A stretch of 63,840 bases of DNA, filler included, from Globobulimina sp. (lineage: Eukaryota), in NCBI GenBank assembly GCA_003354225.1. It is 41 parts of 41 records of this genome, joined end to end, with 100 filler letters (N's around TTAATTAATTAA, not from the genome) between each part and the next. Parts side by side here need not be neighbours in the genome. Positions count along the whole stretch, not along the records: positions 53,035 to 54,492 come from PIVH01016353.1; 40 more parts are not named here. The stretch is one strand, 5' to 3'. Shown piece by piece: positions 52,002 through 55,660 of this stretch (positions are counted from its first letter, which is position 1; each line of letters begins with the position of its first letter). The notes beneath the pieces are model-generated. The model made no database searches. It worked only from the letters and a program-made list of their open reading frames with translations, and was not told where the DNA came from. The translations under genes and the position numbers were made by a program.

Positions 52002-52934
52002 CTAGTTGTTTAGGATGAAATCAATTATGTGCTGCACATTGAATCGACCGGGATTAAGCAATAACGTGCTGCCATTCACATTAACGTAATGATGGTAATC
52101 TGGATGCCAATGTTTGGGATTTTTAAACCACCCAATCCAACACCCAATGCTTGGGAAAATTACTTTATTCGCATTTGCAATGGCAGCTTGATCGCAAAAC
52201 GTCGATGTTGAACATAGCAATAACGGTGCATTTGCCAATCGGAAAAAGTCCATATTCAATGCTTTTGTGCCTTCACTGCCAAACGCTTTGTCGTGTTTTA
52301 TAAGTTGAACTGTGGCGTCCTTAAATAGCTCAGTAAGTGATGGTAACACTGCGTCGACAATTTGTACACATTTATAGTTGGTTTGCTGTGTTACGATCCA
52401 AACTGTTATATCAAGCTCATCGTTTTTCAAATATTTATCCCAGTCCGATTTATCCAAAGCTTGTCTGTAATACGACATTGATAAAAAACCATGTCTTTTG
52501 AGATTGGAAACCAATGCAATATCACCACATCGATAATGTATCACAATGTCTTTAGTCGAAGTAAACATTTCTTCTCTTATTTGCTGACTTGTTTTGTTAT
52601 AAATAAACAACATATATTTCTCAAATGCACTGTGTATCGATGGTATCAACACACGATTAAAATATAGCGGGTTCTCCCATAACAAGCGGAAATCGCTCAA
52701 ATATGTCAGCTGTTTCGTTTCAAACCCTTCAGAAATGGACAAATCCTCAAACTTAACATGTCTGATTATGCTGTAAACCCATTCAATTATTTCCAAATAC
52801 ATCTCCGTATTTAAAATATGTTTATAATCTGAAACAATGGAATCATTTCTTATCCTTTTATCCAAATAATTGCTCCAATATAGCCCATCATAAACATGTT
52901 GCTTATTTGTGAGTGATTTTCTGTGTTTAACAAT
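52002..52934 (-). CDS. Fucosyltransferase-like (GT11-related) protein, partial
   Basis: IVIHYRCGD, MSYY, DFFRLANAPLLLCSTSTF motifs. Confidence 0.65.
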   Translation of the reverse strand: MVKHRKSLTNKQHVYDGLYWSNYLDKRIRNDSIVSDYKHILNTEMYLEIIEWVYSIIRHVKFEDLSISEGFETKQLTYLSDFRLLWENPLYFNRVLIPSIHSAFEKYMLFIYNKTSQQIREEMFTSTKDIVIHYRCGDIALVSNLKRHGFLSMSYYRQALDKSDWDKYLKNDELDITVWIVTQQTNYKCVQIVDAVLPSLTELFKDATVQLIKHDKAFGSEGTKALNMDFFRLANAPLLLCSTSTFCDQAAIANANKVIFPSIGCWIGWFKNPKHWHPDYHHYVNVNGSTLLLNPGRFNVQHIIDFILNN

Positions 52935-53035
52935 NNNNNNNNNNNNNNNNNNNNNNNNNNNNNNNNNNNNNNNNNNNNTTAATTAATTAANNNNNNNNNN
53001 NNNNNNNNNNNNNNNNNNNNNNNNNNNNNNNNNNT

Positions 53036-54492
53036 TGGGCACAACACGAAGAATCACGCCTAACCGGCACATTATGCGACACCTTAACAAACCTCAACAT
53101 ATCCGGAGACAACGATAAATGCGGCATATTTTTGAAAAATATGGGTAGGGTCCAACAGAATCTCCAAGAAATCGACGAAATGTATTTAATTGATATGAAA
53201 GATCAATTTCTCGATCCGTTAAAACAATTTAATAACATTCAAATTAAGAAGTGCCAATCCACCAAACTAAAATTAAAAACAATTAAAGGCGAATTTGATT
53301 TGAAAAAGAAAAACGAAAATAAATTATTAAAAAGCCACTCTGAAAAAAGAACGAATTTGGAAAAAATTCATAACGCTCAATCCGCTGCAGACAAAAAATT
53401 GTCTGAATTGAAATTAGTCCGCAAAGAGTTCATTGCCTGCGTCCAAACCATGGAAATGGAGAAGTTAGAATTAGTAAATTGTATTCGTGAATATATGCTT
53501 TCCTTGGCAGCATATTCCAAAATGCATTCGGCGAACATTGCATTGCAGCACAAAATGATGAATCGTATGCCTCCAAACATGCCATCCAATGCAAGTACAA
53601 ATGCTAACGGCTTGGACTCTGACACTGAGGAATGTTATGTCAATGATTTCGATGAAATCCAAAACCAATCGACCTTGAATGACTGGAGCAAAACCTCCGT
53701 AGTGGTCAAAGAAGGTATATTTAAAAAACGAGGCGCTGTGAATAAAAGTTTCAAGCGTCGCTGGTTTAAGTTATTCACAAATAAAAAATTAACTTATTTT
53801 GAGTTAAATGACGAAGGCAATGCTCCCAATGGAATGTTACGAGGACATGCAAACCTGACCAAAATAATCAGTATTACTTCGAAAAAAAAGAAGTTGATTG
53901 AGATACAAACAAAAACAAGAAAGTATGCCGTATTTTATATTCATTCATTCATTTATTATATACATATATACATTGTTTGTAACTCGTAGATGGGTGTTTC
54001 AGTTCGAAAACAGCGAAGATAGGGATGGTTGGTACGTCGTATTCCACCAAACCTGCGTACAGCATCAGGTGAGGACCATGGCGCAAACTGCCAATGATTT
54101 CGGTGAGATGTTTGTTGGAAATGATATTATTGCGCCCTGCGCAGTTTATAACATTGCCGTGGCTGCGCCAGCTCCGGCGGCCAATGTCGATATGAATATG
54201 AATACTGATTTGCTGCAGTCCGCGTGTCATATGGACGCGAAAATGACCATTGCTCGGACGAGTTTGCATAACAAGCACAGCACGAAACGACTACAATTTA
54301 ATTATCCCAGCAAAGTTTGTAACTGCGGCATATTGAACAATGGCCATACCATTCAAATTAATATCGATTGTGAGGCCAACAAATGTTTGTTGTTTTATAA
54401 CAATTGGACCTATTTTCTAACCACTTTGTACGTGCATACTCCGGCGGAACATACTGTGGATGGCAAACGCTATGACATGGAATGTCATTTGG
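53036..54492 (+). CDS. BAR-PH-alpha-carbonic anhydrase multidomain protein, partial; intron 53923-53989
   Basis: BAR-like QFLDPLKQF...EFD; PH KEGIFKKRG...FKRRWFKL...LTYF...RDGW; alpha-CA NNGHTIQI...VHTPAEHTVDGKRYDMECHL. Confidence 0.8.
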
Positions 54493-54592: not shown

Positions 54593-55660
54593 GGGTTCAG
54601 GTACTTTTGTCCTTTTGGCCGAACCTGAACCTGAACCTGAACCTACCTAAAATCCGAAGTACTTACCTGAAGTACTTTGCCTCGAACCCGGTTTTCAGGT
54701 TAATTTTTACATAAATCTCAGCTGTTTTTTATCAAGTTTTTAGTTTAAAATTATTATTATCTGGTTAAAAAACTGTTGAGGCAGCAAGCAGTCTTATGGT
54801 ACCTTCCCATGTGGGCGCCGATTTGATGTCATGCAATAGCTAAAACAGGGCATGTGTGCGTGAGCGCGGTGAGCGCAAAATAAATATTTCCGCTTATTCT
54901 CATAATCCGATCAAACCTAACTGACCTGGAAACAACATTAAGCTATTTCTCCAGTCCTATAGCAGAGCATTGTGGTGGTAGCAGTTAATGAAACATATTG
55001 TGGTCAGACAACTTTTATTTATGAGATCAGATTGCTGAGCAATAATTAAAAATATTGTTATGGCTAATTCGTCTAATTGTTACAGTCAATAATGGTTCGA
55101 TCGATTTTTCTCCGTACAAACATACAAGTCAGTCAGTCCCCGTGCACTACCGTTTTTTACTCAGACTTCGTGGGCGCAGTTTTTTTTGGTGTCCATGCAA
55201 TGACTAACTCATGCCCCTTGCATGAAATGAAGCGCATGTGTGTTTAAAAATTGGACAAAGAGATGAAGGAAATAAAAGAAAAGGAAGTGATGGCTTGCGC
55301 CATTTTAATATTAAATGCCCTGCCCATGGCAGCTTTCAGGTTTCAGCTCGATGCGACAATTAAATCCTCACATTAAATTTTGAACGAAAAAAATCGATTT
55401 TTCGTTTTCTGTAACCTTATAAACATTCTTGGAGTATGTATCTGCACATATTTACCATGATTTTGCGTAATTTCCTTTGAATAGTCACGTTTTTGTAGTT
55501 GTAATGATGAAATTAAAAAAATGTAAACATTGTCCATGGCGAACCTGAACCTGAACCTGAGTCCGGGTACTTTTTTAGAAAGTACTTGAACCTGAACCTG
55601 AACCTGAAAAATTTTTTTGGCTGAACCTGAACCTGAACCCATGTCAAAATTGCCGAACCT
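54593..55660. repeat. (GAACCT)n subterminal repeat blocks of MITE/hAT-like element ends
   Basis: GAACCT x4 at 54621-54644; three further blocks at 55541-55640; both clusters share GGTACTTTT and AAGTACTT. Confidence 0.6.

Follow-up and report, generated by a model that had tools for sequence, protein, structure and literature searches.

Known systems and the gene in the window

Carbonic anhydrases (CAs) of the alpha class are normally free-standing proteins, soluble or anchored outside the cell, and those of the bacterial type are free-standing and either periplasmic or secreted. Among proteins with a BAR domain, the APPL proteins continue behind their BAR-PH part into a PTB domain and the ACAP proteins into an ArfGAP-ankyrin part, and endophilin has an SH3 domain and neither a PH domain nor a CA. 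Metazoan CA-related proteins (CA VIII, X and XI, and the CA-like domains of receptor tyrosine phosphatases) have lost at least one zinc-binding histidine and are protein-binding modules. Here, we describe a gene fragment from Globobulimina sp. in which these modules meet. It occupies positions 53035-54492 (contig PIVH01016353.1) of the window, that is, of the whole 63,840-base stretch of DNA that was analysed, and it belongs to one expressed, spliced gene of a foraminifer-type protist that encodes a BAR domain, a PH domain, a conserved linker motif and an alpha-CA-like domain. As judged by sequence comparison, both the architecture and the change found at its zinc site recur in a second lineage, represented by the Bolivina argentea protein P0013. 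We consider the CA-like domain to be, with a probability of roughly 0.6, a pseudoenzyme or weak-enzyme scaffold.

Foraminiferal shell chemistry underlies palaeoclimate proxies. In the portions of the two papers drawn upon here, foraminiferal calcification is linked to CA activity as well as to vesicle traffic (PMC10284544, PMC11648905), CAs are listed in a test proteome (PMC11648905), and the alpha-CAs of the Rotaliida are described as forming clades in which both secreted and intracellular forms occur, along with acidic low-complexity regions, the naked foraminifer examined having only beta-CAs (Ujiie et al. 2023, PMC10284544). Neither a BAR or PH fusion nor an altered zinc site is mentioned in those portions of PMC10284544, its supplementary tables lying outside this scope, and the words pleckstrin and PH domain were not found in the passages of PMC11648905. 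A full-text literature search, which did not extend to supplementary tables, returned no description of a BAR-PH-CA architecture. The sequence-only reading that preceded this work knew of no described protein of this kind; as regards the literature this stands, but public EukProt predicted proteomes do contain the architecture, without annotation.

The window consists of 41 contigs of 1458-1461 bp, unrelated to each other and ordered by length, with spacers of N runs around TTAATTAATTAA between them. Adjacency in the window is thus without genomic meaning, and the neighbouring sequence is uninformative for the BAR-PH-CA gene. When six relatives were compared with the 63,840-base window by tblastn, the sole match was contig 53035-54492, whose features are as follows:

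53035..54492, plus strand: whole genomic contig, a gene fragment, delimited by the piece boundaries; both gene ends lie outside it
53036..53922, plus strand: exon 1 (P0001), 295 codons and 2 bases; open frame, colinear with the transcript contigs
53039..53560, plus strand: BAR domain, N-terminal part cut by the contig end (Pfam BAR, AlphaFold2 helices, Foldseek, family profile)
53561..53695, plus strand: BAR-to-PH loop, low-complexity and predicted disordered (predicted local distance difference test, pLDDT, below 50 at residues 175-220)
53696..53922, plus strand: first part of the PH domain (beta strands) with the basic motif KKRGAVNKSFKRRWF (Pfam PH_8, PH and PH_3; model strands)
53923..53989, plus strand: intron, 67 nucleotides (nt), GT..AG, phase 2, ~24% G+C; missing from the contigs of all four runs
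53990..54062, plus strand: last strand and C-terminal helix of the PH domain (WVFQFENSEDRDGWYVVFHQTCVQ), colinear with the complete PH domains of P0003, P0013 and P0132
54075..54113, plus strand: conserved post-PH motif TMAQTANDFGEMF, common to BAR-PH paralogues with and without a CA domain
54114..54215, plus strand: Ala/Pro-rich linker of higher G+C, its length varying in frame (composition peak; 6-nt insertions)
54216..54492, plus strand: alpha-CA-like domain, N-terminal half, cut by the contig end (PF00194, 4x5s, 328 HMMER relatives)
54429..54431, plus strand: TAC, Tyr at the position of zinc ligand His94 (HMMER alignment); Thr at 54423-54425 replaces Gln92
54435..54437, plus strand: CAT, His kept at the position of zinc ligand His96 (HMMER alignment)
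54486..54488, plus strand: CAT, His kept at the position of zinc ligand His119, in MECHL (HMMER alignment)

A spliced and expressed frame across the PH-to-CA junction

The sequence-only reading had proposed that removal of the 67-nt intron yields one frame running from a BAR-like region through a PH domain into an alpha-CA domain. Both the intron and the frame are borne out. Exon 2 (P0002) covers 53990-54492 and encodes 167 residues; joined to exon 1 via a split AAA codon, it gives 463 codons with no stop, along which the Pfam domains lie in the proposed order. Left unspliced, the frame of exon 1 meets a stop at 53987-53989.

We compared the contig with four public runs (X1, X2, X6 and X8) from four studies, whose identity to it is ~99% for X1 and X2 and ~95% for X6 and X8. 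In all four, the match stops at 53922 and restarts at 53990 while the record coordinates are consecutive, as at 219-1106 followed by 1107-1615 in X6 record 15 and at 1024-1133 followed by 521-1023 in X1 record 7. Four runs without exactly the GT..AG segment are most simply read as messenger RNA, though they carry no RNA label. The linker between PH and CA is crossed whole by a single contig in three of the four runs (X1, X6 and X8), and in X2 by two contigs that overlap by 30 nt. X6 record 15 (1839 nt) spans 53035-54492 in one piece and extends 218 nt upstream, and X1 record 7 and X8 record 17 cross the linker and extend 520 and 388 nt past the contig end. These overhangs fit in size the absent N-terminus (76 residues in P0003) and the absent half of the CA domain (183 residues in P0013). 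A chimeric junction, which would be expected if no transcript spanned the PH-to-CA boundary, is thus not what we find, since transcript contigs span the junction and P0013 is a second protein with the same architecture.

Two further joints were considered and rejected. The joint from 53206 to 53762 in X2 rests on a 29-nt piece with 3 mismatches and was taken as unrelated. The segment 54069-54218 (GTGAGG..TGCAG, 150 nt, in frame) could be read from the sequence as a second intron, but the contigs of X1, X6 and X8 run through it and retain it.

Differences between the runs and the window were used to assess selection on the frame. Among the differences listed (40 of 66), 30 are synonymous, and eight of the ten non-synonymous ones fall in the disordered BAR-to-PH loop. 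Three listed differences lie in exon 2, all synonymous, and the 26 remaining ones most likely lie in exon 2 as well. The indels seen in X8 and X6 are two 6-nt insertions, behind 54164 and 54168, both in frame. Because 30 of the 40 listed differences are synonymous and the indels measure 6 nt, it can be concluded that the frame is under purifying selection.

The BAR-PH module and its relatives

The first half of the protein resembles known membrane-binding modules both in sequence and in its modelled fold. Pfam BAR matches residues 23-163 with an expectation value (E) of 3e-6 and 27.5 bits, the curated cut-off being 28.5. The AlphaFold2 model of exon 1 (mean pLDDT 69.6) has helices at residues 2-18, 28-104 and 108-175, followed by PH strands at 223-292. 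Searched with Foldseek, this model finds the BAR-PH part of APPL1 best (2elb, E 2e-5; 2q13, E 4e-5), together with those of APPL2 and ACAP1, and among BAR domains those of endophilin (1x03), arfaptin and SNX. We also compared a family profile, A1, made from an alignment of four BAR-PH family members, with solved structures; it matched the C-terminal PH domain of TAPP1 (1eaz, E 1.6e-8) and the BAR domain of endophilin-A1 (2c08, E 1.2e-5). The long antiparallel helices of a BAR fold are therefore seen in the window model, in the P0013 model, in the Foldseek matches and through the endophilin profile match. The PH domain is matched by PH_8 (25.6 bits), PH (23.6 bits) and PH_3, each interrupted by the intron, and its basic signature KxnKRR aligns with KNWKRRYF of TAPP1. 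PF00169 covers 1-104 of its 105 profile positions in P0003, and the complete PH domains of the relatives score 40-56 bits. Its place directly behind the BAR domain is indicated alike by Pfam, the profile, the model, Foldseek and the spliced alignment. No signal peptide is evident in the basic N-termini of the full-length relatives. When residues 1-215 of P0013 were modelled in two copies as a BAR homodimer, one control scored close to the query.

Structurally, the exon-1 model comes closest to the BAR-PH parts of APPL1/APPL2 and ACAP1 (2elb, 2q13, 5c5b, 4h8s, 5h3d; E 2e-5 to 2e-3, probability 1.00), and in them, as in the window protein, the PH domain stands directly behind the BAR domain. Sequence identity, however, is 12-16%, and the global TM-scores are 0.3-0.4, so that the relative placement of the domains is not fixed by the comparison. 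The window has a CA-like domain in place of the C-terminal domains of those families, which are missing from P0013 too. Since these domains are absent, the window protein is, by its sequence, not a member of the APPL or ACAP family, although it shares their BAR-PH module. The N-BAR of endophilin-A1 (2c08, 1x03, 1zww) is the only BAR family matched by the sequence profile (positions 79-194); in Foldseek it superposes with a root-mean-square deviation (rmsd) of ~5 Å over ~173 columns at 17-19% identity.

A further BAR-PH profile matched four of the 157 proteins compared with it (P0003, P0132, P0013 and P0154), and a CA domain follows only in P0013 and P0154. P0013 (Bolivina argentea, EukProt, 591 amino acids) has a BAR-like N-terminus, a PH domain of 44-47 bits and a CA domain of 68.7 bits; its BAR-like part is matched by Pfam Pil1 with 23.3 bits, under the cut-off. 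P0154 (Nonionella stella, EukProt, 595 amino acids) is 99% identical to P0013 and has the same domain order. So high an identity is unusual between two genera, and the two transcriptomes may have material in common. In the P0013 model (mean pLDDT 78.9) a short N-terminal helix and three long helices are followed by the PH domain, the linker and a CA core of pLDDT >90, which is broken by an acidic disordered insert at 454-489. Like the window protein, P0013 and P0154 combine BAR-like helices, a PH domain, the linker motif (here SMKQTAADFG) and an alpha-CA-like domain in which Gln92 and His94 are lost. They differ from it in that identity is ~42% in BAR-PH and ~33% across the PH end, linker and CA, in that they are without the two BAR-PH insertions common to the window and P0003, and in having no QSxx motif. 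With the closest relatives coming from Bolivina argentea, Nonionella stella and Ammonia sp., the foraminiferal setting supposed from the sequence fits. In other searches, P0002 gave no matches to longer proteins in the homologue search, metagenome contig scans with P0002 and with A1 confirmed no relatives, and a search of the ESM Atlas with P0013 gave no usable match.

We also observed that P0132, P0173, P0174 and P0175, four of the eight BAR-PH relatives found by profile search, end in a small shared C-terminal domain (..GQY[IV][ND]..VI[LF]L..), present twice in P0132, which has no Pfam match.

The alpha-CA-like domain and its zinc site

The second half of the fragment belongs to the alpha-CA family by its profile score: PF00194 (Carb_anhydrase), whose cut-off is 27 bits, matches with 34.9 bits, and the match extends over positions 23-111 of the 254 in the profile. 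A HMMER search with P0002 gave 328 relatives at E <=1e-3, the best 150 of which were listed, and nine of ten of these listed relatives that were submitted to Pfam have a CA domain. The best solved match is PDB 4x5s (E 3.5e-9), and bacterial-type alpha-CAs in general (Sulfurihydrogenibium 4x5s and 4g7a, Neisseria gonorrhoeae 1kop, Photobacterium 5hpj) are the best solved matches of the CA half of the window. The P0013 model, too, has its best fold matches among them, its CA part finding them in Foldseek at E ~1e-12 and rmsd 2.2-2.8 Å, and motifs of the NNGHTIQ and PSEHT type are held in common. The bacterial-type enzymes differ in having an intact QFHFH, no acidic insert and no BAR-PH.

Residue positions are given here in the numbering of human CA II. 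In the HMMER alignments, TLYVH-TPAEHTVDGKRYDMECHL of the window lies opposite QFHFH-APSEHTVNGKYYPLEMHL of the solved bacterial alpha-CAs, so that His94 is replaced by Tyr and Gln92 by Thr, while His96 and His119 are present. His64 (in NNGHT), Glu106 (AEH) and Glu117 (MECH) are also kept, and the N-terminal CA motif QSPI reads QSAC. The motifs QSAC, NNGHT, AEH and MECH, recognised beforehand by eye, thus occupy the expected alignment columns, and the suspected exchange of the first zinc-ligand His for Tyr is confirmed by the alignments and by the codon itself, which is unchanged in the X1 and X2 contigs. In these two runs the only differences near this codon are two synonymous ones in X1, at 54440 and 54443. 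In P0013 and P0154 the zinc motif is AFNFH, with Gln92 and His94 again lost and Asn, not Tyr, at position 94; His96, Glu106, Glu117, His119 and LTTPP (Thr199/200) are kept. As it scores above the Pfam cut-off but has only two of the three zinc histidines, we class the domain, by sequence, as alpha-CA-like and do not call it a carbonic anhydrase. With at least one zinc His replaced, and the same position lost in P0013, it has the defining feature of a CA-related protein. In a pattern search of the best 150 of the 328 HMMER relatives, the three-His motif was kept in 161 of 188 motif instances (130 proteins), so that the change in the window is an exception; a few of the 27 exceptional instances are probably false pattern matches. 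Tyr at position 94 occurs also in P0148 (HFYFH), P0060 (QFYFK) and P0062 (GIYFR).

The domain thus resembles the metazoan CA-related proteins in being alpha-CA-like with a zinc His lost, and CA VIII (2w2j) appears at rank 42 among the structures matched by the fold of the P0013 model. It is unlike them in that only one ligand is lost and in its fusion to a membrane module. The CA tree, built from 120 N-terminal halves over 91 columns, is poorly resolved and holds HMMER matches only, with no named metazoan CA-related proteins among them. The window CA falls into a 47-row clade with a support of 94 in the Shimodaira-Hasegawa-like approximate likelihood ratio test (SH-aLRT), which is under the star threshold. 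The same clade holds P0013, P0007 and P0016 (Nonionella), P0019 (Bolivina) and P0025 (Ammonia), and the window CA thus groups with named foraminiferal CAs. Since the nearest tree rows are foraminiferal CAs, independent loss within a protist CA clade would be expected, and orthology with the metazoan CA-related proteins appears unlikely. The acidic low-complexity insert of the window's relatives fits the acidic regions of foraminiferal alpha-CAs as these are described in the portions of PMC10284544 used here. Constraining the window and P0013 to group together was not rejected in a 52-row subset (p value of the approximately unbiased test, p-AU, 0.686), and the constrained tree had a log-likelihood 13.85 above that of the free search; a single origin of the BAR-PH-CA fusion would fit this result. 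The end branches of the window (0.87) and P0013 (0.65) compare with 0.05-0.3 for canonical foraminiferal paralogues, a difference suggesting that constraint on the CA-like domain has been relaxed or has changed, and over 62 columns the window CA is 53% identical to P0018.

How such a protein might act can be proposed from its parts. By analogy with APPL, ACAP and endophilin, we infer that the BAR-PH module forms dimers and attaches on the cytosolic side to curved membranes that carry phosphoinositides, and the whole protein would then most likely be cytosolic and membrane-targeted. The CA-like domain, to judge from its residues, most likely no longer hydrates CO2 efficiently; it would be a binding or sensing module like those of the CA-related proteins, carried to membranes, and at best a weak enzyme. 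A poor enzyme, or none, is probable because first-shell and second-shell residues are lost together, QSPI has decayed and the branch is fast-evolving; activity is still possible because the rest of the catalytic set is kept. Of the earlier proposal that a CA or CA-like sensor is tethered to vesicles, with a possible link to pH control or biomineralisation, the CA-like domain holds; a working CA is less likely, as His94 and Gln92 are both gone and the CA branch is long, which favours a pseudoenzyme or a weakly active one.

A working CA with an unconventional metal site, made of two His and Tyr or Asn, or of water, and delivered by BAR-PH to the cytosolic face of curved endomembranes for local supply or removal of bicarbonate or protons, is nevertheless possible, though we hold it to be rather unlikely. 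The acatalytic CA-related proteins are defined by a missing zinc His, and here the first- and second-shell residues are gone together in both lineages; the QSPI motif has decayed to QSAC in the window, P0013 lacks it, and canonical paralogues have CA branches several times shorter. For activity speak the catalytic residues visible in the window, all of which except Gln92 and His94 are kept, Thr199/Thr200 kept in P0013, the confidently modelled P0013 core, the recurrence of Tyr94 in P0148, P0060 and P0062, and the intact His triads of parallel foraminiferal CAs with other N-terminal modules. In human CA II, too, His94 carboxamide variants retain activity, and His94-to-Asn variants keep some zinc binding and activity. 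The opposite extreme, a functionless remnant that decays while being lost from a BAR-PH gene, might account for the long branch, the degenerate N-terminal CA motif, the lost zinc ligand and the other C-terminal domains of most BAR-PH paralogues. It is improbable, however, given an open and expressed frame with NNGHT, AEHTVDGKRY and ECHL kept, the 53% identity to P0018, the purely synonymous character of the three listed exon-2 differences, and the retention of a CA domain with a confident modelled fold in a second, 42%-identical lineage.

Least probable of all is that the PH-to-CA junction is an artefact, produced by chimeric assembly or by reading two adjacent genes as one, with a CA start at the ATG at 54078. 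The contig is short, a composition scan shows a rise in G+C across 54035-54284, ACCATGG at 54075-54081 resembles a good start context, and the closest BAR-PH relative, P0003, has another C-terminal domain behind the same linker. Yet the genomic contig agrees with the transcript contigs of four studies, including a ~95%-identical variant with in-frame indels, the 463 codons contain no stop, and P0013 has the same domain order. A separate CA gene starting at the ATG (54078-54080) was rejected, as its Met sits within a motif (TMxQTAxxFG) that is kept in BAR-PH paralogues without a CA, and the presence of the motif there argues against a separate start. Fusion of a bacterial contaminant to a eukaryotic gene was likewise rejected, as the CA half groups with named foraminiferal CAs and the junction lies in spliced transcripts.

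Several points weigh against a single BAR-PH-CA gene with a disabled or weak CA-like domain. The four runs lack an RNA label on record, and a contig across two regions does not alone prove one transcript. Pfam BAR scores lie under the curated cut-offs, in the window as in its relatives. In the profile search, a CA was found in only one of eight BAR-PH relatives (P0013), and P0013 and P0154, near-identical across two genera, may be one source and were counted once. The grouping of the window with P0013 could be long-branch attraction, over only ~98 columns. P0003 (Bolivina argentea, 626 amino acids), the nearest BAR-PH relative at 72% identity, continues into a helicase and not a CA: behind the shared linker motif and a poly-Asn stretch comes an Mtr4-like DEAD helicase, whose sequence sets in well within that of a usual helicase. 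We suspect that P0003 is a transcript-assembly chimera at the low-complexity stretch; alternatively, it could be a real domain swap. As for the zinc site, the C-terminal half of the CA, with Thr199 and Thr200, is outside the contig and the domain is visible only to His119; the His64, His96, Glu106, Glu117 and His119 of the window, Thr199/Thr200 of P0013 and the human CA II variants mentioned above tell in favour of activity.

Beyond the scaffold reading, a more far-reaching proposal, which on the present sequences we regard as doubtful, is that foraminifera put CA chemistry on the cytosolic face of endomembranes. A His2-Tyr or His2-Asn site, naturally re-engineered, would still catalyse or would sense CO2, bicarbonate or pH, and BAR-PH would concentrate it on endocytic or seawater-vacuole membranes as part of the machinery of vacuole alkalinisation and calcification. 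The gene offers a concrete, testable connection of membrane remodelling to the CA family, or to a regulator derived from it. The paired loss of His94 and Gln92 in two lineages (to Tyr in one and Asn in the other at position 94), with the rest kept, is a natural experiment on the dismantling or repurposing of a zinc site; if the domain is simply inactive, it would be a further independent origin of CA-related pseudoenzymes.

Among the wider set of relatives, other N-terminal regions precede the CA domain. P0064, P0023 and P0066 have weak, sub-threshold PH matches ahead of it (Pfam PH, E 0.001-0.005). The alpha-CAs P0025 (Ammonia sp.), P0019 (Bolivina), P0066, P0064 and P0010 start with MGxCES or MGNCQS, which resembles a myristoylation/palmitoylation signal; P0023 does not. 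In P0025, P0019, P0066 and P0064 a coiled coil and a conserved PH-like region come next, and in P0010 (381 amino acids) a shorter N-terminal region leads into the CA. All five have an intact His triad (QFHFH in P0025, P0019, P0064 and P0010, HFHFH in P0066) and an acidic insert. Tethering of cytosolic CAs to membranes may thus be more widespread in this group. Furthermore, P0004 (2170 amino acids), P0005 (1690 amino acids), P0009, P0034, P0043 and P0105, which are among the top HMMER matches, contain 4-8 tandem alpha-CA stretches, and several of the tandem repeats have degenerate zinc motifs, e.g., QLQFH...EMQIV in P0043.

Elsewhere in the window, a minus-strand frame of 310 codons at 52005-52934 fills most of the previous contig and has no Pfam match at E <=0.01. 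The next contig (54593-56050) has runs of the hexamer GAACCT at ~54622-54648 and ~55540-55650 and frames without a clear coding signal, and it may be a repeat or the end of a mobile element.

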